Positions 20,837 to 29,881 of a DNA stretch of 64,000 bases are shown one piece after another; the first letter of the stretch is position 1, and every line of letters starts with the position of its first letter. This DNA is from Bacteriovoracaceae bacterium (GTDB taxonomy: Bacteria > Bdellovibrionota > Bacteriovoracia > Bacteriovoracales > Bacteriovoracaceae). The notes under the pieces are model-generated. The model made no database searches. It was not told the DNA's origin and saw only the letters and a program-made list of their open reading frames with translations. The DNA lies in assembly GCA_964231135.1 (NCBI GenBank), contig CAXRIU010000021.1:157427-221426 (forward strand), in the 5' to 3' direction. The translations under genes and the position numbers were made by a program.

Positions 20837-22024
20837 TTACATCACAGGTAGAGTGATTTTAAAATTGCTGCCCTGGCCTTCAGTACTTTCCACCTTAATT
20901 TCACCCTTAAGATTTCTTACTAAGCTCGCAACGATAGGAAGTCCAAAGCCAGTTCCCGGCTCATTCTCAGTCCCTTTACGGCTAAGGTTCTTTCTATTGT
21001 TGAAAAGCTGTTTTTGCATTTCTGAAGGGATGCCAATACCTTGGTCTTTAACTTGTAATTGAAGGTTTTCGTCTTTGATTGATATCTTGATTTTAATTTG
21101 TTTATTTCTTGGGGTGAATTTAATGGCGTTGTTTACCAGATTTAAAAGGATGTTATTTTTTAATATTGTCGGATCTGTCTTGAAGGTAAAATCTTCTGCA
21201 AGGTTTGAGTCTATAGTAATTGAAAGTTCTTTGTTAGAGAGGGGTTCTTCAACTATTTCTAGTAGTTCTTCAATTAATTCTTTGATATTGACTTCGCTTA
21301 TATTCAGTTCAAATTCATTATAGCTAGAGACTCTCAATTTTTTCACATCATAAACGATCTCTTCAATTGTTTTCAAATGTTTTTCTACTTTGTCCAAATG
21401 CTTTCGTCTTTGAACAAAACTTCTTGAAACCATCAGCGGGGTCGCAATATCATGGATGACAGTTCTAAGAAGATTATCAATCTGATCATTTTTTTCTATG
21501 ATTTCTTTTTCATGACTTTCAATCGTGCGAGTATAATTCTTTATCAGTCCAGAGCAGGCGAGAATAAACACAATTGTGTTGGCAATTTTTTGTTGCTCGT
21601 AATTCATAATAATATTTGCTGATGGAGGATAGTATTGTTCGGCCAGGACAAGTAGGAGGTACAGAAATAAACTTCCAATGGTTGCCGACTTTATATAGTT
21701 CGAATTAAATATGGAGCTTATACCAATAGGAATGAGTGCGAGGGCAAATGGTGCAGGAGCTTTAGTGCATCCAGCAGCATATATTAAAACCCACCCCATA
21801 ACTACAATAGAGTAGAAAATTAGGCTTGCTTGAGTTTTGTAACGAAGCTCTCTTAACGACCAAACAATTGCTACGAAATTAAAAAAGAGCGCCTGTATTA
21901 TCGCCCAGTGGTATTGAAAAGTTTTATGCACAAACGTAAATGAAATGAGATAGTACAACTCAATAGCACCGAATCCGATGGATAACCAAATAAGTTTGCT
22001 ATGAAGTTTTCTATCAATTTGCAT
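20837..22024 (-). CDS. Membrane sensor histidine kinase
   Basis: About 6 N-terminal TM helices. H-box VIHDIATPL, N-box LVNNAIKFTP, G-boxes DQGIGIP and GTGFGLPIV. Confidence 0.9.
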   Translation of the reverse strand: MQIDRKLHSKLIWLSIGFGAIELYYLISFTFVHKTFQYHWAIIQALFFNFVAIVWSLRELRYKTQASLIFYSIVVMGWVLIYAAGCTKAPAPFALALIPIGISSIFNSNYIKSATIGSLFLYLLLVLAEQYYPPSANIIMNYEQQKIANTIVFILACSGLIKNYTRTIESHEKEIIEKNDQIDNLLRTVIHDIATPLMVSRSFVQRRKHLDKVEKHLKTIEEIVYDVKKLRVSSYNEFELNISEVNIKELIEELLEIVEEPLSNKELSITIDSNLAEDFTFKTDPTILKNNILLNLVNNAIKFTPRNKQIKIKISIKDENLQLQVKDQGIGIPSEMQKQLFNNRKNLSRKGTENEPGTGFGLPIVASLVRNLKGEIKVESTEGQGSNFKITLPVM

Positions 22025-22044
22025 ACCGAAGTTATCGGACGATT

Positions 22045-23361
22045 TTAAGATTTATTCAAAAGGTTTTTAATCGCACTTTGGCATTTTTTAAAGGTTTTAT
22101 CTTGAAAAAAATCATCATATTGATCAACTATTTCACCGACATGCCCCGGTGATTCAGGTTGTTCAATCGCCAATGAGGTGGCCAGAATTTGGGAAAAGAT
22201 AAACAGCGATGGTAGGAAGGGGAGTGAAGACGCATAACTTCCCCTTGGGAAACCCGATCCGTCTGGTCTTTCATGATGAGAACGGATGATCGCAACCACA
22301 TCACTATAGTCTCCATCCAGTTTTGAAACCAGCAAAGCCGCATTTTCTGGATGCTTTAGTATTTTACTTTTTGTCGCAGGAGCTAGGTGTTCCATATCCG
22401 TTTTGGTGTAGATCAATTTTTCTTCATCTGTGTCGAGAAAAATATCGCAAAAAATCGCTGCCATAACTAGTTTGGGTAAATTTTGCACTGGACTCATTTC
22501 AAGCATTTCTAGAACACTGGCTGCAATATAGGTGGTGAGAAGATTTCTTGTTGCGATATGACCATCGACATTTGCTTTATAGATAAGAAACTCTGCCATT
22601 TTATTATTTGATGACAATTTTGTGATCACATTATCGGTAATAGAATCAACCAATTTGAAAATTTTCTCAGAAATACCGAGTTTGTCCGCAATCTCTCTGG
22701 CGTCAGCAATTAATTCGACTGACATTTTTATTTGGTTTTCTAATGTGATGGATTTATTTTCAATAAAAGAAAGAACTTTGTTAAAGAAGTATTTTTGAAT
22801 TTCAAAAAAATCTTCACCACTGACGTAGAGCCTGCCACTTTCTTTGACTTTCTCGTCCAGCTCTAATTCAGCTTCTCGATTTTTCAAAAGTACTAGGCGG
22901 CCAGCGACTTGTAAGTAGACCTCGATATCTGCTCCTCTATATTTTGTCAGCTGTTCAGCGCTAATTCTATGAAAATCATCATATTGCCTTTCAATTAGTA
23001 TTTTCGAGGCTGCACTATATTGAAACTTCATTTGATCAAAGGGCTTTATTAGGTAATCTACTTCATTGTTTTTAAGCTTTCTCACAAGGTCTACCCAGCG
23101 CTTAGTATCTTTAAGAACCCATGTGGTAGGAATCGTTTTGGCAGTTGATTGTTGATCCATAAAAAGGTCTTCAAGATCCATATCAATAAAACGATCATCG
23201 ACCATCATGTAGGATATGTCTTCATTCTGACGGTAATAGCTTGCCAGGTCTTTAGCCGATTTAAGCTTTATTAGATTAAGACTTGTAGGAGTCCTGCAAG
23301 TAATGAGAAGCTCCATATAATCGAGCATTGAATTTTCGTTAGATGCAATTACAACTTTCAT
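22045..23361 (-). CDS. HD-GYP domain protein (putative c-di-GMP phosphodiesterase) with a degenerate receiver-like N-terminus
   Basis: C-terminal ILKHPENAA...IIRSHHERPDGSGFPRG (HD...HHExxDGxGYP pattern). The N-terminal MKVVIASNE... is receiver-like. Confidence 0.8.
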   Translation of the reverse strand: MKVVIASNENSMLDYMELLITCRTPTSLNLIKLKSAKDLASYYRQNEDISYMMVDDRFIDMDLEDLFMDQQSTAKTIPTTWVLKDTKRWVDLVRKLKNNEVDYLIKPFDQMKFQYSAASKILIERQYDDFHRISAEQLTKYRGADIEVYLQVAGRLVLLKNREAELELDEKVKESGRLYVSGEDFFEIQKYFFNKVLSFIENKSITLENQIKMSVELIADAREIADKLGISEKIFKLVDSITDNVITKLSSNNKMAEFLIYKANVDGHIATRNLLTTYIAASVLEMLEMSPVQNLPKLVMAAIFCDIFLDTDEEKLIYTKTDMEHLAPATKSKILKHPENAALLVSKLDGDYSDVVAIIRSHHERPDGSGFPRGSYASSLPFLPSLFIFSQILATSLAIEQPESPGHVGEIVDQYDDFFQDKTFKKCQSAIKNLLNKS

Positions 23362-23480: not shown

Positions 23481-24209
23481 ATGATAAAAACTTATCGGGA
23501 GAAAGCTTTGTTAAATAAAATTTTTTTGCACTTTGGACCTGGCGCAAATGCCAGTATTGAGAAAGAGTTTTTAGCTGACCCAACAACTCATTATTGGAAC
23601 CAGCCAAAAGTGAGTTCACCTAATTATATTGAAGACTTACTTCGAGATACTTCGGAAGAGATTAAAAAGCTTGCTAGTGATTCCAAAGGAAAAGTTGAGA
23701 TTATTGCTCATTCTTTCGGTGTTTTTTTAGCACAAAATTTAGATGAAAAAACTAGAAGCTTGGTTTCAAAGGCAGTCTATCTTGCACCAACTTTTGATTT
23801 TAGACGCTCGATAACTAATATGATGAGTTTTGTGGCGAATGATTCTTCAATAAAAAACATTAATAGCTTTGAGGAATTTTTAAGTGCGTTCGTGTCTTTT
23901 AGCACTAATCATCCAGATTATTTTAAATATTATTTTCACCAAGAAGAGAACTTTCAAAAATATATTAAGCTTGCCCAAAAATATGAATCGACTCATGAAG
24001 CTAGTCTCATGGCAGGAATCAAAGAATTGATTAATACCTACGCCAATCAAGCAATTTCACCTAAGTATGATAACACCAAGGTTATCCTTGGCAAATATGA
24101 CCCGCTAGTTCCAAAAGCTGATCAAGATTTGATATCGAGTGTATTTGAGCATACTGAGATCGTTGATGCTGGTCATTTTCCCCATTTAGAAAAACGAATT
24201 ATTTTTTAG
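23481..24209 (+). CDS. Alpha/beta-fold hydrolase
   Basis: Nucleophile elbow IIAHSFGVFLA and C-terminal DAGHFPHLE (catalytic His region). Confidence 0.7.
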   Translation: MIKTYREKALLNKIFLHFGPGANASIEKEFLADPTTHYWNQPKVSSPNYIEDLLRDTSEEIKKLASDSKGKVEIIAHSFGVFLAQNLDEKTRSLVSKAVYLAPTFDFRRSITNMMSFVANDSSIKNINSFEEFLSAFVSFSTNHPDYFKYYFHQEENFQKYIKLAQKYESTHEASLMAGIKELINTYANQAISPKYDNTKVILGKYDPLVPKADQDLISSVFEHTEIVDAGHFPHLEKRIIF

Positions 24210-25032
24210 CATTAATTATCTTCGTTTCTAATGTCGTAAAATCAATCTTTAAGTACTCTGGCATAACTGGAGTAGGAGTTATCGGGGTTCCCAAAATTTT
24301 TGAGCCCAAGATATCACAAAGAATTCTTGTTACTACAATTGAGTGTCCCACTAAGCAAGATGGACCGAAGATAGGCACACCATCATTCAGGCATTCAGAT
24401 CTAAAGTCCTCCATATTTTTATCTTGAAGATAAGTAGGAGATTCATGAATAAAACTTTTTACCATCTCATCAAACTTTTCTTCAGGAGTCATACTTTCTT
24501 TTAAAGAGAGAAAGTCTTCAAACCTGTATTCATTTCCGTCAAATTTATAAAAATGAATTCCAAGGCCAATGACATAAGCACTATATACGGGAAGTTCATA
24601 TCTTCTAGCAGATTGATGAAGAAGATAATGTGCTTGAATAGGAAAGACATCAATCTCATCGACAATAACGTCGCAACCCGAGACGAATTGATCGACATTC
24701 TCTTCTGTAATTCCGTCATCATAAACGCTTAAGTTTAAGTCTGGAGAGATTTGTAGTAACTCCCTTTTACTGGCAGCAGCTTTTTTCATTCCAACTGAAT
24801 TTAGGTTGGCGATTACCTGACGATTTATATTTGAAGTTTCAATTATATCGGGGTCAGCGATCCTTATATTTTGAACCCCAAGTCTTACTAGGTATTCAGC
24901 AATATTCGATCCCATCCCACCTAGGCCTGCAATTCCTACAGTTAGATTTTTAATATTTAGCTGACCTTCGTCTTTAAGGAAGAAATGGTTTCGCTTGGTT
25001 CTTTTCTGATAAAGATTGTCAGATTCCGACAT
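24199..25032 (-). CDS. ThiF/MoeB/HesA-family (E1-like) adenylyltransferase, non-canonical
   Basis: Rossmann GIAGLGGMGSNIAEYL and IADPDIIETSNINRQ. No C-terminal CxxC zinc motifs and no rhodanese domain. No ThiS/MoaD-like gene nearby. Confidence 0.75.
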   Translation of the reverse strand: MSESDNLYQKRTKRNHFFLKDEGQLNIKNLTVGIAGLGGMGSNIAEYLVRLGVQNIRIADPDIIETSNINRQVIANLNSVGMKKAAASKRELLQISPDLNLSVYDDGITEENVDQFVSGCDVIVDEIDVFPIQAHYLLHQSARRYELPVYSAYVIGLGIHFYKFDGNEYRFEDFLSLKESMTPEEKFDEMVKSFIHESPTYLQDKNMEDFRSECLNDGVPIFGPSCLVGHSIVVTRILCDILGSKILGTPITPTPVMPEYLKIDFTTLETKIINAKK

Positions 25033-25088
25033 AAAAACTCCTAAGTTGTAAAGAGTTTACGGCAAAAAACACAAAAGATTTAGGAAAT

Positions 25089-25104
25089 TCTTATTGGAAT
25101 AAGA
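25089..25104. promoter_or_regulatory. Palindromic operator candidate in the divergent ThiF-like / XRE intergenic region
   Basis: TCTTATT-GG-AATAAGA, perfect 7-bp arms. It contains ATTGGAAT, whose complement ATTCCAA recurs upstream of the LuxI-fold-like gene. Confidence 0.4.
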
Positions 25105-25142
25105 CACTGGACATTCTGAGTATTATTGATTAATATATAGGG

Positions 25143-25937
25143 ATGGGAACAAGTGGAAAAGAATTAAGAGAAAAAACAGCACGTATCTTTAGGGCCGGAA
25201 GAAAGCTCTATGGAATTAACCAGGTTGAGATGGCCAAAACCTTAGGTATAACACAGGGAACGGTCTCAAAGCTTGAAACAGCAGTATTAGCGCCAGACGC
25301 TGGTGTTTGGTACCAATTTTGTAAGCACCTAAATTTAAATGCAGACCTAACTTTCAGCTCAGGTTTTATCTTTGATCCAGATCTTGGAAAAGTTCAAAAG
25401 GACAAATTCAAACTAGGGAAGAAGAAGTCTGGATCTAAAAACAAGATTAAGGTGAGAAACTGTCTGCCTTTTATTGATACAATCTACAGTTTAGAGGGTT
25501 CTGAAGGTCTGGCCAAACATCTCAAGCTAATTAATATCGATGCAGACGTATTTGCGGTACCTGATTACGATGTTCCAGTTGAAGTTTTATCGGAGGTATT
25601 TAATTATCTTGGTGGCCTTCAAACTGAAGCAAAAAGTCTTAAAGCTGTAACTGAGAGTTACTTAAAGTATCAAGATATCCTTTATTCGGGTGATATTGAA
25701 TCAATTGAGATGCTAACAAGCCTCTTTAGAAGTCAGTTGGTAAATGTCAGTCACGAAGCTGGGTGTGTAAATATCACTGTTGACCTTGAAGATAATGCTA
25801 AAATCAATCAAAATTTCCTAGCAGGGTATATAAAGTACCAATCGCAGTTAATTAAGGAAATAGCTTCAAAGGTTTTAAAGATCGACGGGATGACATTGGA
25901 TAAAGTAGATTTGTTTCAGTACTCTCTTCGCTATTAG
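25143..25937 (+). CDS. XRE-family HTH regulator with an uncharacterised ~190-aa C-terminal domain
   Basis: GINQVEMAKTLGITQGTVSKLE (HTH_XRE). The C-terminal domain is unrecognised. Confidence 0.75.
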   Translation: MGTSGKELREKTARIFRAGRKLYGINQVEMAKTLGITQGTVSKLETAVLAPDAGVWYQFCKHLNLNADLTFSSGFIFDPDLGKVQKDKFKLGKKKSGSKNKIKVRNCLPFIDTIYSLEGSEGLAKHLKLINIDADVFAVPDYDVPVEVLSEVFNYLGGLQTEAKSLKAVTESYLKYQDILYSGDIESIEMLTSLFRSQLVNVSHEAGCVNITVDLEDNAKINQNFLAGYIKYQSQLIKEIASKVLKIDGMTLDKVDLFQYSLRY

Positions 25938-25939
25938 GT

Positions 25940-26785
25940 ATGACATTAGATTTACAGTTTTGGCAGAGTATTGATCGAATTAGATCGAGTCTGTTCATAG
26001 ATGATCACGAGCTTTGTGATCTTCTAGACTTGAGCTCTCAGAAAATACAGGCCTTCGAGAAAGTTCAAAAAATTCCGGATTTAGGGAATGTGTCAAATTT
26101 ATGTGATCGCTTAGGGATCACTCTTGATGACGTGTTTGAAAATAGCTTTGATGATAAAGTGTTGAAGGCCAAGTTTTTAGGAAATAAGCTAGAACTTCCT
26201 AAAAAATACGACTTTGCTAAATTTAGTAAAACTAGAACTATTATAAATATCCTTGATCATTTGAAATCATATTACGGACCTGGGTTTGTAACCAGTCTCC
26301 TGAAATCAATGCAGATAGACCCGCGTTTTTTTGATTCGCCTGATAATGAAACTAATATTTTTGTGATAAGTGATCTCTGTCAAAAACTGAAAGAGTTAGG
26401 ACTGCGTGATGAGGACTTTATAAATTTTGGAAGAAGTTCTTACAAGGTGTATCGAAATTCGAGTTTTGGAGAAATTTTAAAATCTCACTCTGACCCAGCC
26501 GAGATGCTGGATGATCTTTGTTCAAATTATAGTTCGCTCTTTGACAAAAATTTCGACTATAAGGTCACAAGAGCAAATGTTAAAGAAATTCTAATAGATG
26601 TAAAACCCAGTGAGCAGGCCAAAGACCTTCTTGGTACTAATTATCTTACAAATTCAGAAGCTTGCCTTACAAAACTTGGCGTATTTGAAACCTTTCCACT
26701 TTATATTGGAGTCGATGCAAAAGCTGAAAAGTCCAAATGCATCTACCAAGGGGACGATACAACGGAATATAGAATTAGTATTTAA
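25940..26785 (+). CDS. Second XRE-like (degenerate HTH) protein with a similar C-terminal domain organisation
   Basis: N-terminal LFIDDHELCDLLDLSSQKIQAFEK...LCDRLGITLDDVF. Starts 2 nt after the previous stop. The C-terminal pattern loosely parallels the upstream protein (ID..F..PD segment). Confidence 0.65.
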   Translation: MTLDLQFWQSIDRIRSSLFIDDHELCDLLDLSSQKIQAFEKVQKIPDLGNVSNLCDRLGITLDDVFENSFDDKVLKAKFLGNKLELPKKYDFAKFSKTRTIINILDHLKSYYGPGFVTSLLKSMQIDPRFFDSPDNETNIFVISDLCQKLKELGLRDEDFINFGRSSYKVYRNSSFGEILKSHSDPAEMLDDLCSNYSSLFDKNFDYKVTRANVKEILIDVKPSEQAKDLLGTNYLTNSEACLTKLGVFETFPLYIGVDAKAEKSKCIYQGDDTTEYRISI

Positions 26786-26880
26786 GCTCCAGAATTTATT
26801 CCAAATTGAAAATAAAATGAAATAATCCTAAATTCCAATTCGAATACACCGAGGAGATTTAGTGTTCGAAGGAGGAGTTT

Positions 26881-27606
26881 ATGGATTTAGATGATTTGCA
26901 AATCGTTGTGATAGAGGACCTGAAAGACTTTTGGGATGACCAAGATATTAGAAGTCTCTATGGGGACCTAATGAAAATTAAATTCGATGGTTATGGTCAG
27001 GTTTATGGCGATAATGTCGTCTCTGCAGATAGGATTGATTTTTTTGGAACTCACCTGATAATTTGTAAAAAGGGTCTAAGACTTAAACCATTAGTCGGCT
27101 ATAAGTCGGTGACACTTAGTAAGTGTGAAGCGTTTAACTGTATATTACCTGCGATTCCTTTAATCAAAAACGATGGAAGTAAAGAATGTTATCAAAGCTT
27201 GATGCGATTGATTGAATCGGCTAAACATAACGGAGAAGAGCTTTCATTTGATTACTCCTGGGCACAAGACCCTAGTCTTAAAGCACTAAACAGCTCTGAA
27301 CTTTTTCGAGACTTAATAATGAGTATGGGAGTTAATCACCACCTTGAAAAAAAGATTACTCATATGATTACTTGTGGGGCGGTAAGAGTAAAAACGGATT
27401 TGTTTTTTGAAAAGATGGGACTTCAAAAAGTCTCTAACTCTGCGGAGTTCTCACAAAAAGATCTCAATGGTGACAAGGCTTATCTCTTTCATACCCAGCA
27501 GTTTTCTGAATACGGTCTAAGTGTGGCCGCAAAATACAAAACTCTGTGGGATAGAAGGCTTCACTTTTCAAAAAAGCAAGGGGCACACTTAAAACTAGCT
27601 GCTTAG
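26881..27606 (+). CDS. Hypothetical protein with LuxI / N-acyl-amino-acid-synthase-like (GNAT-fold) sequence pattern
   Basis: Strong SD AGGAGGAG. By-eye similarity to V. fischeri LuxI as I recall it: IRSLYGDLMKIKF versus ILSLRYQVFKQRL, EELSFDYSWA versus VELSRFAV, KITHMITCGAVRVKTDLFFEKMGLQKV versus GITEYVTVTSTAIERFLKRIKV. Several catalytic LuxI residues are not evident. Confidence 0.35.
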   Translation: MDLDDLQIVVIEDLKDFWDDQDIRSLYGDLMKIKFDGYGQVYGDNVVSADRIDFFGTHLIICKKGLRLKPLVGYKSVTLSKCEAFNCILPAIPLIKNDGSKECYQSLMRLIESAKHNGEELSFDYSWAQDPSLKALNSSELFRDLIMSMGVNHHLEKKITHMITCGAVRVKTDLFFEKMGLQKVSNSAEFSQKDLNGDKAYLFHTQQFSEYGLSVAAKYKTLWDRRLHFSKKQGAHLKLAA

Positions 27607-27696
27607 ATTCTATATGGAATTGTGGGCGGAAGTTATTTAATAAGAACTTTCTTTTTTTTCAATTTGAGTTGAAAATAATTCTAGGAGTTATAAATC

Positions 27697-29055
27697 TTGG
27701 AAAAAATTCAACTTATTATCATGACGATGCTAGTTGTAATGATCGTAGCGTCTGTGGTGTCATTCTTAATATTTTGGTCCAAAAAAGATGAGAGTCTATA
27801 TAAAAAACTTTTAGTCTATTGGGGGTTTCAATTATTAAATATGGTGGTCCAAGGTGCCACTAAAGAAGCTTCACCGATATTGCTCGCGAGTGCTTGTTTA
27901 ATTTGGCCGGCATTAGCTCAAACAGTGGTTCTGATGTATCAAGACCTCTACGATATAAAAATCCCACGAAATCGAACAATCGCTTTGGCCACGGTAGGGG
28001 CCGCTATCGTTATGTACGGACTATATTTTGTGGGTATGCCTTTTGTTGTGTATTCTCATGCTCCAATTTTATTAGTTGCTGGTATGACATTTAGATACAG
28101 TTGGAGTGCTTTTCAAAATATATCTTCTAATAGAGTAGGTCGCTTTTTAGATTATGTTTTTCTATTCTGTAATATTCTTTATATTCTTCAGACGATGACT
28201 TATCCTTTTAGCCGACTCGATCCTAGCAAAGCAGAGCTTGGTCTATTCATGCATTTGAGCTTTGCTGTTAGTTTTGCCATCTTTTTACCTGCAGTGATCC
28301 TTAAAAGAGTTGAGTGGCTTCATCACCGAGAACTAAGGCACAAAGTTGAAGTTCAATCTTCAGCTTTAATCAATGAAACCAAGAGTAGTTCTCTTGGTGT
28401 TTTTAGTGCAGAGATTGCTCATCAAGTAAATAATCCTCTTACAGTCGCTCTAGGAAAAATTAGGCTAGAAAGAAAACACTCTGACAGTAAAAACTTAGAA
28501 GATTCTTTCAATGCGATCTTAAAAGCTTCAAACGTTTTGCATGCAATTAAGTCTCTATCGGCTAGCTTAGAAAATGAACCTAATAGAACTGATTTAACCG
28601 AAGTCCTTAATACATTTAACGAGTCTGTCGAATTCGCACTTGAGGGTAAAAGAATTAGATTTAGAAAATCCTGGCAAACCACTCCTTGTTATGTTCATTG
28701 CCCAAGATCTGTTTTAGTCCAAGTTCTTTTGAGCCTATATAATAATGCTGTAAAAGCCCTTGAGGAGTCTAGTTGTGAAGATAGGTATCTTGAAATAAAA
28801 GTTGATTATAGTCCTTACCGAGTGGTGATGAGTTTTATCGACTCGGCCGCAAGTATTAGTGATGAACAAAAGGCAAGTTTGTTTTTACCCTTTAGGATTG
28901 AAGATAAAAAAACCGCGGCAAAGGGGATCTCTCTGCCAACGGTTAAATTATCTCTTAAACAATTTGGTGGTGATATCAAATTAGTTCAAAACAAAGGCGT
29001 TACTCGTTTTGATTGCTCGCTTGATCCTGTAATTGATAGATATTCACATGCTTAA
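27697..29055 (+). CDS. Polytopic (about 7 TM) sensor histidine kinase, no adjacent response regulator
   Basis: TTG start 10 nt after AGGAG. H-box FSAEIAHQVNNPLTV, N-box LLSLYNNAVKAL, C-terminal GISLPTVKLSLKQFGGDIKL. Confidence 0.85.
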   Translation: MEKIQLIIMTMLVVMIVASVVSFLIFWSKKDESLYKKLLVYWGFQLLNMVVQGATKEASPILLASACLIWPALAQTVVLMYQDLYDIKIPRNRTIALATVGAAIVMYGLYFVGMPFVVYSHAPILLVAGMTFRYSWSAFQNISSNRVGRFLDYVFLFCNILYILQTMTYPFSRLDPSKAELGLFMHLSFAVSFAIFLPAVILKRVEWLHHRELRHKVEVQSSALINETKSSSLGVFSAEIAHQVNNPLTVALGKIRLERKHSDSKNLEDSFNAILKASNVLHAIKSLSASLENEPNRTDLTEVLNTFNESVEFALEGKRIRFRKSWQTTPCYVHCPRSVLVQVLLSLYNNAVKALEESSCEDRYLEIKVDYSPYRVVMSFIDSAASISDEQKASLFLPFRIEDKKTAAKGISLPTVKLSLKQFGGDIKLVQNKGVTRFDCSLDPVIDRYSHA

Positions 29056-29881
29056 CATTTACCTCAAAGCTGTAGGCTGCGTGCTCGCAATCGCCATTGT
29101 CATTATCGCCTGTAGTGACAAAACTAAAGTCGATATTTGTTTCTAGGTTTTCACTGACTATATTTTCAGACAATAAACCCAGCTTTACGATTTCTTCTTT
29201 TGGAATTTCAAGCTTCATTTGACCGTAGGTCTCTGTGGGAGGAATATTACATTTTTGTGCAAAATCAGGATCAGAAGAATCAACTCCTAGACAATATTGA
29301 GGAGTGTAGTTCCATATGTATACGAGCCCTAATAATCCATTTTCTCCTGACCAGTCATACTCTTGTAAACCTATGGCGTTTTGAGTAAACCCATTAGGAT
29401 GCTTGTCTGACTGAGAGTAATTTTGTGAGGACATAACCACATAATTATTAACCAGTAGAAAAATCTCGTCATCATACTGCATGTCTTGTTCAGGAAAATT
29501 GAAGTCCATATCACAGATAGTCGTTCCCGCCGGTAAATTTATACGATAATCTTGTTTTATTCTCGCGGTAATCAGGGCATCAATTCGAGGTCCATTTCCA
29601 GCATCATTGACTTCACTTATTACACTTCCGTGCTCATTGAAGTCGCATTCAATAGCAGCGGGAAAATCAACAATAAATGTCGTCGACTCCAGATCATTTT
29701 CTTCTTCTGCAACAGCGCAATTATATTGAGCAATTTCTAAATCTGTTTCGAGATCACCAGTGGGGTTATTGCGATTGTATTCGTCTTGAAAAGTTTCAAT
29801 AAAGTCTTTTTCATAGAACTCATCTTCATTACAAGAGGCAAGTAGCAGACAACTCGTCATCACTAAAGATAATAGCTTCAT
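29000..29881 (-). CDS. Hypothetical lipoprotein
   Basis: MKLLSLVMTSCLLLASC (lipobox LASC), 293 aa. Its 3' end overlaps the kinase 3' end by 56 bp, in convergent orientation. Confidence 0.65.
   Translation of the reverse strand: MKLLSLVMTSCLLLASCNEDEFYEKDFIETFQDEYNRNNPTGDLETDLEIAQYNCAVAEEENDLESTTFIVDFPAAIECDFNEHGSVISEVNDAGNGPRIDALITARIKQDYRINLPAGTTICDMDFNFPEQDMQYDDEIFLLVNNYVVMSSQNYSQSDKHPNGFTQNAIGLQEYDWSGENGLLGLVYIWNYTPQYCLGVDSSDPDFAQKCNIPPTETYGQMKLEIPKEEIVKLGLLSENIVSENLETNIDFSFVTTGDNDNGDCEHAAYSFEVNVKHVNIYQLQDQASNQNE

Follow-up and report, generated by a model that had tools for sequence, protein, structure and literature searches.

We analyzed a 64-kb stretch of DNA from a Bacteriovoracaceae bacterium (the window, to whose positions all coordinates refer) and identified a locus in which the gene for a 241-amino acid (aa) GNAT-like protein, the proposed signal synthase, stands beside genes for two regulators with an XRE-type helix-turn-helix (HTH), designated XRE1 and XRE2. 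We propose that these genes form a synthase–receptor cassette for small-molecule signaling in the Bdellovibrionota and their phages, with a core of two genes that is extended here to three, and we give this reading an even chance of being correct. It builds on the folds of the proteins, the absence of motifs that define known families, gene linkage, a location in phages, and the conservation of spacers, all of which were observed. An initial annotation of this DNA had described four same-strand genes, namely two tandem XRE-HTH proteins of approximately 270 aa with a 2-nucleotide (nt) gap between the genes, a protein resembling LuxI and N-acyl-amino-acid synthases, and a histidine kinase. The open reading frame (ORF) listing has all four genes as described, the tandem regulators being 264 and 281 aa long with the gap of 2 nt (Table 1). 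Homologues are conserved for each of the four genes, so they are not chance ORFs.

Linkage was determined with tblastn and hidden Markov model searches of 25 fetched loci (23 non-redundant) and of the window. The GNAT-like gene directly adjoined an XRE2-family gene in 24 of the 24 non-redundant loci with enough flanking sequence, the window included, and the paired loci spanned identities from 97% down to approximately 25%. The closest clade has the order XRE1, XRE2, GNAT on one strand. In the distant clades, which are most of the clades, XRE2 is convergent with the GNAT-like gene and the 3' ends often overlap; adjacency of the pair thus survives strand inversion. XRE1 was present in chromosomal loci of the Halobacteriovoraceae/Bacteriovoracaceae type and was absent from the largest sub-cluster (L023-L026) and from prophage loci. 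The expectation that all four genes would be conserved together held for XRE1, XRE2, and the GNAT-like gene, which recur within a larger neighborhood that includes an α/β-hydrolase and a ThiF-type enzyme, but not for the kinase with about 7 transmembrane helices (7-TM kinase). Because the kinase is not co-conserved, the four genes are not one unit, and XRE2 is the invariant partner of the GNAT-like gene.

The 241-aa protein had no Pfam or NCBIfam match at E<=1 and no PADLOC match at E<=0.01. Among 60 diverse relatives there was no consistent Pfam family and no match to PF00765, and FeeM-type models (Acetyltransf_5 and the TIGR PEP-CTERM-associated type) matched neither the protein nor its relatives. 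PDB sequences searched with the single sequence and with the family profile also returned nothing. A word-indexed search found 22 clusters, all from metagenome-assembled genomes of the Halobacteriovoraceae or Bacteriovoracaceae type and all labeled "hypothetical"; exhaustive searching with a profile enlarged the family to 596 clusters at 50% identity (519 of them at E<=1e-10), of which almost every one is full-length at approximately 250 aa.

AlphaFold2 modeling on the family alignment gave a predicted local distance difference test (pLDDT) score of 92.5 and a predicted template modeling (pTM) score of 0.89. When this model was searched with Foldseek, FeeM (2g0b) was the best structural match in the PDB, its chains taking ranks 1, 3, 4, 6, and 8 (E 4e-6 to 3e-5; target template modeling [TM] score 0.56-0.66). 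EsaI (E 6e-6) made up the top two with FeeM, LasI matched at E 1e-4, and BjaI had the highest query-normalized TM score (0.55/0.61). Generic GNATs, comprising agmatine and polyamine N-acetyltransferases, NAT10, AtaT, and KacT, matched at E 1e-5 to 3e-4, with TM scores exceeded by those of BjaI and FeeM. Among viral structures (BFVD), a Roseobacter phage acyl-homoserine lactone (AHL) synthase was one of the top matches. Judged from the model, a GNAT fold is certain, and the LuxI/FeeM sub-type of that fold is favored by a small margin. The likeness to LuxI and N-acyl-amino-acid synthases that had been claimed for this protein was therefore upheld for the fold, with FeeM and EsaI as the top PDB matches, but not for the sequence, to which neither PF00765 nor a FeeM-type model could be matched. 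The motifs on which that claim drew (ADRIDFFGTHLII, ELSFDYSW, and ITHMITCGAVRV..FFEKMGLQKV) are all in the translation, and the very strong Shine-Dalgarno sequence reported ahead of the gene is AGGAGGAG at 26870-26877, 3 nt before the ATG.

The conserved core of the family consists of K/R34, G37, Y38, Y42, D50, D53, H58, C62, P70, K/R75, S76, F89, and P90 in its N-terminal part, followed by Y123, S126, W127, T128, P131, R134, G166, R/K169, K171, T172, D173, G180, W223, and R226. D50 was found in 88%, D53 in 98%, and K/R75 in 100% of members. Polar, active-site-like residues conserved this strongly across approximately 600 clusters argue for an enzyme. In comparison with LasI, TofI, BjaI, and RpaI, whose sequences were recovered from the PDB, the D-x-x-D pair has LuxI-like spacing, and K/R75 lies 14 residues from F89-P90, the same distance as from R67 to F81-P82 in LasI, although hhalign does not confirm this register. 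The E-x-S-R signature of LuxI strand β4 (E97/S99/R100 in EsaI; E98/S100/R101 in the 1ro5 sequence) is not kept. With β4 mapped onto LuxI by secondary structure and spacing, not by superposition, the strand (residues 121-129) reads S-F-D-Y-S-W in the window protein, S126 is present in 63% of the family, and the position of the Arg is occupied by W127 in 75%. Also absent is the acetyl-CoA pyrophosphate loop after β4, [QR]xxGx[GA], a pattern that occurred anywhere in only 8 of 60 members and at no conserved position. By sequence and catalytic signature the family is outside LuxI and FeeM, and the likeness lies in fold and layout.

The C-terminal tail of this family is disordered and conserved as [KR]-[KRI]-[AV]-A-COOH (..K-x-A-A). 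A is the last residue in 143 of 171 members and stands at -2 in 124 of 171; the tail of the window protein is LKLAA (27589-27603, the last five codons). This tail resembles an ssrA-type ClpXP degron, which suggests regulated proteolysis. A transfer-messenger RNA gene, sought for comparison of its tag, was not found in the window.

XRE2 alone gave only 2 matches in a word-indexed search, and an alignment built from the fetched loci recovered 39 database relatives. XRE1 has a clear HTH_3 domain (Pfam, E 1e-7). The HTH of XRE2 (about residues 1-70) is degenerate, with Pfam HTH_26 at E 0.1 only, but the XRE2 family profile matches the XRE/Cro HTH structures CylR2, PezA, and C.BclI at E 0.01-0.06. 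The two proteins are paralogues of the same architecture (hhalign 96.5%, E 9e-10, 200 columns). In the AlphaFold2 model of XRE2 (pLDDT 90.9), about residues 88-281 fold into a helical bundle with a β-β-α-β-β unit after it. Foldseek matched this C-terminal domain to the H-NOX structures 6bde and 2o09 (K. algicida, Nostoc) with TM scores of 0.73-0.75 and a root-mean-square deviation of 3.2-3.7 Å over approximately 194 columns. Also matched were 3tfg and soluble guanylate cyclase β1 and, more weakly, palmitoylated Bet3/TRAPPC3 and the aromatic-sensor domain of MopR. The predicted fold is that of H-NOX and not of tetratricopeptide repeats (TPR), for which there was no Pfam match either; the earlier comparison of these C-terminal domains to RNPP/Rgg-type receptors was thus not supported.

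The heme-binding residues of H-NOX, taken from Tt H-NOX (H102 and Y131-S133-R135, 1u4h sequence), were missing. The propionate-binding motif Y-x-S-x-R was found in 0 of 40 XRE2-family members, and no proximal heme-ligating His (helix αF) was conserved on XRE2 helix 186-201, the nearest being H183 (57%) and H199 (42%). Pfam HNOB and V4R likewise matched 0 of 40, and hhalign of XRE2 against Tt H-NOX gave 0.2%. In L023 (6772-7698 and 8809-10101), an XRE2-like partner with a weak precomputed Pfam V4R match was observed, with a cytochrome P450 gene nearby; this match is the only sequence-level link of the XRE2 family to the H-NOX/V4R/Bet3 superfamily.

Invariant residues in the XRE2 C-terminal domain, polar ones prominent among them, are Y90, S96, N103, N139, D145, D202, N204, Y207, T244, G247, and Y277, and C242 is well conserved. 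So dense a set of invariant polar residues is expected of a specific ligand pocket, and, with neither the proximal His nor Y-x-S-x-R, the modeled domain probably binds a ligand other than heme. Bet3 covalently holds palmitate (PDB entry title) and MopR binds phenolics, which indicates that the H-NOX/V4R/Bet3 fold accepts hydrophobic ligands. Conservation is reversed in XRE1, where the HTH is highly conserved and the C-terminal domain barely so. These opposite patterns suggest a division of labor in which XRE2 would sense and XRE1 would bind DNA or serve as a second regulator. In literature searches we found no mention of an XRE HTH joined to an H-NOX fold, and this architecture appears to be undescribed.

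The pair also occurs in phages. L020 (6001-7700) and L021 (6001-7701) carry a bare GNAT-like gene with a convergent XRE2-like gene in prophage regions. In both prophages, as confirmed with PHROGs, the pair sits between an endolysin gene and cI-like/cro-like HTH genes; a tail-fiber gene, Erf or RecT with an exonuclease, and an integrase are found around it, and the L020 pair adjoins a HicA toxin gene. One viral structure in BFVD, A0A516MPF4, is a clear member of the GNAT-like family (E 4.6e-22, TM 0.87/0.85). Viral contigs of IMG/VR had no match to peptide patterns derived from P0160 or from A1 (the diversity of A5 precluded a pattern), and INPHARED phages had none in tblastn searches with two family members. 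With both of these searches empty, the evidence for a link to phages consists of two prophage contexts and one BFVD structure. Prophage LuxI/LuxR pairs have been reported to control lysis–lysogeny (PMC13345283, a 2026 preprint), a direct functional precedent for a synthase–receptor pair at such a genomic position.

The spacers flanking the XRE pair were the most conserved DNA of the locus when compared with L022, a collinear TARA Oceans contig and the nearest relative. Identity was 90.0% for the ThiF–XRE1 spacer (25033-25142) and 88.4% for the XRE2–GNAT spacer (26786-26880), compared to 73-86% nucleotide identity for coding regions and 62-78% for other spacers. The palindrome CTTATTggAATAAG is identical in L022; it has the form 6+2+6, with arms under the length limit of the inverted-repeat tool, and was read directly from the sequence. 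TTATTCCAA has 3 copies in the 64 kb, 2 of them in the ThiF–XRE1 and XRE2–GNAT spacers, and both candidate sites in the XRE2–GNAT spacer are invariant relative to L022. These observations suggest that the ATTCCAA-core sites are XRE operators. L022 was the sole relative close enough for footprinting and was too similar to resolve individual sites. An Rfam scan of the locus found nothing, so the conserved spacers are not known RNA elements, and a promoter and terminator scan gave sites no more frequent than in shuffled sequence. We also considered a small-peptide gene of the arbitrium/RNPP style in the XRE2–GNAT spacer and rejected it, as only a trivial ATG-AAA-TAA was present.

The most frequent accessory gene was the α/β-hydrolase, linked in 15 non-redundant chromosomal loci including the window. 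A ThiF-type enzyme was linked in 10 loci (plus L025/L026) and a methyltransferase dependent on S-adenosylmethionine (SAM) in 6 loci (plus L024), and no locus had both. The methyltransferase, of the Methyltransf_11/23/25 type, was found in L003, L007, L010, L011, L017, L019, and L024; its exchange with ThiF was also seen inside the close clade, in which L007 has the methyltransferase. That ThiF and methyltransferase exclude each other while the hydrolase is usually present suggests carboxylate-centered chemistry, capped and uncapped. An HD-GYP-type protein, which could link the module to cyclic di-GMP (c-di-GMP), was near the module in the window, L022, L003, L011, L017, and L019 (approximately 447 aa in the distant loci), and the HD_5 protein of L017 carries a receiver domain. 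In one sub-clade (L025, 4257-5911; L026, 2-1599), a pyridoxal phosphate (PLP)-dependent (PALP) enzyme is co-oriented with ThiF beside the pair, and a GAF-HK-receiver hybrid kinase and an α/β-hydrolase of the dienelactone-hydrolase type are near it.

From these data we infer an enzymatic activity, the kind of product formed, the binding of a ligand, and the release and sensing of the molecule between cells. In the proposed mechanism, the 241-aa enzyme would most likely take an acyl group from a donor on a carrier, either acyl-ACP (ACP, acyl carrier protein) or acyl-CoA, and transfer it to an amine. The acceptor would probably be a head group of the amino-acid type, and a small hydrophobic amide would result. 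The product is thus probably an N-acylated molecule rather than a classical AHL, and the caution in the initial annotation that it need not be an AHL was well placed. XRE2 would take the product, or a tailored form of it, into its heme-less H-NOX-fold pocket and thereby change transcription; XRE1 would act with or beside XRE2 at the ATTCCAA-core sites in the spacers on either side of the XRE pair, and in this way both the synthase and the divergently oriented ThiF gene would be subject to feedback. ThiF or the SAM-methyltransferase would cap the carboxylate of the product, by adenylation/cyclization or by methyl-esterification, and the α/β-hydrolase would uncap it by ester or lactone hydrolysis; this tailoring is the weakest and most speculative step. 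The histidine kinase, an accessory component for output or input whose sensor varies, and the nearby HD-GYP protein may couple the module to a phosphorelay and c-di-GMP output, and the prophage pair, at the lysis–lysogeny switch, could let a phage sense its own or its host's density. Carried to its full extent, the mechanism would amount to an unrecognized cell-to-cell system in Bacteriovoracia and their temperate phages: a LuxI/FeeM-fold enzyme would make an N-acyl amino-acid-derived signal that is esterified by the methyltransferase, or adenylated/cyclized by ThiF, into a membrane-permeant form, turned over by the hydrolase, and sensed by the XRE–H-NOX-fold receptor, with a kinase/c-di-GMP lifestyle output in bacteria and lysis–lysogeny in phages. 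In this complete form we consider the proposal rather unlikely.

However, several points weigh against a synthase–receptor cassette. Foldseek gave the 241-aa protein only modest E-values, at 1e-6 to 1e-4, and the scores of generic GNATs come close. Pfam, NCBIfam, and hhalign gave no sequence-level link to LuxI or FeeM; hhalign of the family against an alignment of LasI, TofI, BjaI, and RpaI reached only 23% probability in a doubtful register, and for that reason no homology to LuxI is claimed. Position 124, where β4 should carry the catalytic acid (E97 in EsaI), is not conserved in the family and falls below the 60% cut-off. The H-NOX fold of XRE1 is predicted from its paralogy with XRE2, and the operator motif comes from one comparison with a close relative (L022) in an AT-rich genome. 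No transporter, ACP, or fatty-acid gene was linked to the pair in the loci compared. Finally, an intracellular metabolite-sensing circuit fits the same data.

Such a circuit could take the form of a local metabolic or detoxification operon. The enzyme would then N-acylate or otherwise modify a metabolite inside the cell, such as an amine or amino acid taken from prey, the XRE proteins would be ordinary regulators responding to substrate or product, and ThiF or the methyltransferase and the hydrolase would be pathway enzymes. Although we regard this explanation as doubtful, the same linkage data fit it, and neither an exporter nor a dedicated signal-transduction gene is strictly conserved. A biosynthetic flavor is also given by the PLP-dependent enzyme beside ThiF in L025 and the P450 near the L023 pair, and lipid-binding XRE regulators of metabolism are known, such as MltR with myristate (PMC3406030). 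What the operon does not account for is that temperate phages carry the bare pair at the immunity region without pathway genes. In addition, a kinase and an HD-GYP protein are recurrently linked, and in structure the enzyme is closest to synthases of signals or lipid amides.

We found it improbable that the pair is a toxin–antitoxin or abortive infection system, in which a GNAT-fold toxin (such as an aminoacyl-tRNA acetyltransferase resembling AtaT, TacT, or KacT) would be joined to an XRE antitoxin and repressor. GNAT toxins with HTH antitoxins are a known class, and AtaT and KacT were among the Foldseek matches (E 5e-5 to 3e-4), but of all the structures listed they had the lowest TM scores (0.35-0.37), the protein lacks the acetyl-CoA P-loop, and it has approximately 245 aa compared to roughly 160-175 aa for GNAT toxins. 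Its partner contains a sensor domain, is 280-310 aa long, and is encoded convergently in most clades rather than co-transcribed, and PADLOC had no match for the GNAT-like protein. The pair does occur in prophages, once beside a HicA toxin gene, and the conserved -AA at the C-terminus might act as a protease degron; however, in toxin–antitoxin systems it is normally the antitoxin that is labile.

The initial annotation had favored a logic like that of LuxM/LuxN or AinS/AinR, in which the adjacent 7-TM kinase senses the product and the XRE proteins act as receptors of an RNPP/Rgg-like kind. The kinase gene directly follows that of the synthase-like protein on one strand, and a hydropathy scan agreed with its description, finding about 7 hydrophobic helices in residues 1-208, short loops, and no periplasmic domain, so that the sensor would be membrane-embedded. 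This arrangement is kept in L022, and some kinase follows the synthase-like gene in most chromosomal loci, but the sensor module is not conserved. An orthologue of the 7-TM kinase was found only in L022. GAF kinases replace it in L001, L004, L008, and L009; L003, L005, L007, L010, L011, L015, and L019 have sensor-less kinase cores of 206-216 aa with the H-box at the start; some loci have no kinase at this position, and the prophage loci have no linked kinase. With the 7-TM sensor limited to the window and L022, and with an H-NOX rather than a TPR fold predicted for the XRE C-terminal domain, we consider a 7-TM kinase receptor even less probable than a toxin–antitoxin pair. The H-box of the mini-kinases is exemplified by YLLHDLNNYLT, which is followed by a CA domain. 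By analogy to H-NOX/HnoK, the mini-kinases may be controlled in trans by the H-NOX-fold proteins.

Linkage of sensor-less kinase cores and HD-GYP proteins resembles H-NOX/HnoK/HnoD circuits. Least probable of all, and in our view very hard to sustain, is that the XRE–H-NOX proteins are heme-based gas or redox sensors of the H-NOX/HnoK type with the GNAT-like gene as a mere regulated target, given that, for all the strength of the fold match, the good conservation of C242 in XRE2, and the reported ability of heme-free H-NOX to serve as a Cys-based redox sensor (PMC7108781), the proximal His, Y-x-S-x-R, a Pfam HNOB match, and alignment to Tt H-NOX are all lacking and the strict 24 of 24 pairing with the GNAT-like gene is left unexplained.

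A synthase–receptor cassette would share features with several known systems. The convergent, overlapping topology of most clades resembles esaI/esaR. As in LuxI/LuxR systems, a synthase of GNAT-like fold lies beside a ligand-binding transcription factor, and EsaI, LasI, and BjaI are among the best structural matches; as with prophage-borne LuxI/LuxR, copies are found at the lysis–lysogeny region (precedent in PMC13345283). Unlike LuxI, the 241-aa family has no PF00765 match and no conserved β4 E-x-S-R; unlike LuxR, the receptor combines an XRE HTH with an H-NOX-fold domain instead of Autoind_bind with GerE; and ThiF or a methyltransferase, together with a hydrolase, is linked to the pair, which distinguishes it from both. 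FeeM also lacks the acetyl-CoA P-loop, so that the 241-aa family is like it in having a GNAT fold without this loop. The two have no sequence similarity, however, and the 241-aa protein exceeds FeeM by approximately 50 residues and has an inserted helix (101-116) and an extended C-terminus; unlike the fee clusters, it has a dedicated regulator encoded beside it.

On the receptor side, the XRE2 C-terminal domain has the same predicted fold as H-NOX, and sensor-less histidine kinases and HD-GYP proteins are linked, as in H-NOX/HnoK. Unlike in H-NOX, the domain in XRE2 is without heme ligands and follows an XRE HTH in the same protein, whose gene is paired with that of an enzyme instead of occurring alone. 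MmyB and MltR similarly have an N-terminal XRE-type HTH followed by a ligand-binding module of approximately 200 aa. MltR binds a fatty acid, and some members of its family adjoin the signal synthase gene afsA (PMC3406030). In contrast to XRE2, the ligand domain of MltR is PAS-like, its family is centered on actinomycetes, and there is no sequence relationship between the two. The logic of a synthase next to its receptor, phage carriage included, is already known; neither of the two protein families nor the receptor architecture is curated, and all appear to be undescribed.

Bdellovibrio-like predators are regarded as being without AHL-type quorum sensing. A phylum-wide survey of 82 genomes found no acyl-homoserine lactone synthases in Bdellovibrionota, in agreement with the remark in the initial annotation that none had been described in such predators, and in searching the literature we met no account of a LuxI-like enzyme from this phylum. 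The locus is a concrete and testable candidate for density sensing in these bacteria. If the proposal is true, it would add a new synthase family and a new class of receptor that re-uses the H-NOX fold without heme, and it would be a second example of phage-borne small-molecule communication, one outside LuxI/LuxR. It would also offer a possible genetic route to AHL-like N-acyl amino acid esters, for which the literature knows no biosynthetic genes. Even if the molecule is intracellular, approximately 600 unannotated clusters would gain a fold-level annotation and a defined partner.

Table 1. Positions of the genes and candidate regulatory sites of the locus in the window, and of the sensor-less mini-kinases in related loci.
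Feature	Sequence	Position	Strand	Remarks
XRE1	Window	25143-25937	+	264 aa; ORF listing
XRE2	Window	25940-26785	+	281 aa; 2-nt gap after XRE1; ORF listing
241-aa GNAT-like protein, proposed signal synthase	Window	26881-27606	+	ORF listing
Histidine kinase	Window	27697-29055	+	452 aa; TTG start; HisKA and HATPase_c
ThiF/E1-type adenylating enzyme	Window	24199-25032	-	Divergent from XRE1; PF00899, E 6e-39
α/β-Hydrolase	Window	23481-24209	+	Abhydrolase_1 and Abhydrolase_6
HD-GYP-type (HD_5) protein	Window	22045-23361	-	438 aa; HD_5, E 3e-9
Palindrome CTTATTggAATAAG	Window	25090-25103		Divergent ThiF/XRE1 spacer; holds TTATTCCAA on minus strand; candidate operator
TTATTCCAA	Window	26796-26804	+	XRE2–GNAT spacer; candidate operator site
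ATTCCAA	Window	26832-26838	+	XRE2–GNAT spacer; candidate operator site
Mini-kinase	L003	9867-10493		
Mini-kinase	L005	8840-9490		
Mini-kinase	L007	8781-9407		
Mini-kinase	L010	11261-11884		
Mini-kinase	L011	526-1146		
Mini-kinase	L015	8783-9424		
Mini-kinase	L019	4376-5002		

Other genes were observed at the edges of the locus. Downstream, a 293-aa protein (29000-29881, minus strand) with a lipoprotein-like N-terminus and no Pfam match is encoded convergently with the kinase gene, with a 3' overlap of 56 nt; L022 conserves this protein, as does L007 at a different place in the locus. A membrane histidine kinase of 395 aa and the HD_5 protein lie immediately upstream of the module and together occupy 20837-23361 on the minus strand. 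The α/β-hydrolase and ThiF genes of the window are convergent with an 11-nt overlap (24199-24209), and convergent ends that overlap or closely abut were also seen in L001, L004, L005, L008, and L022.

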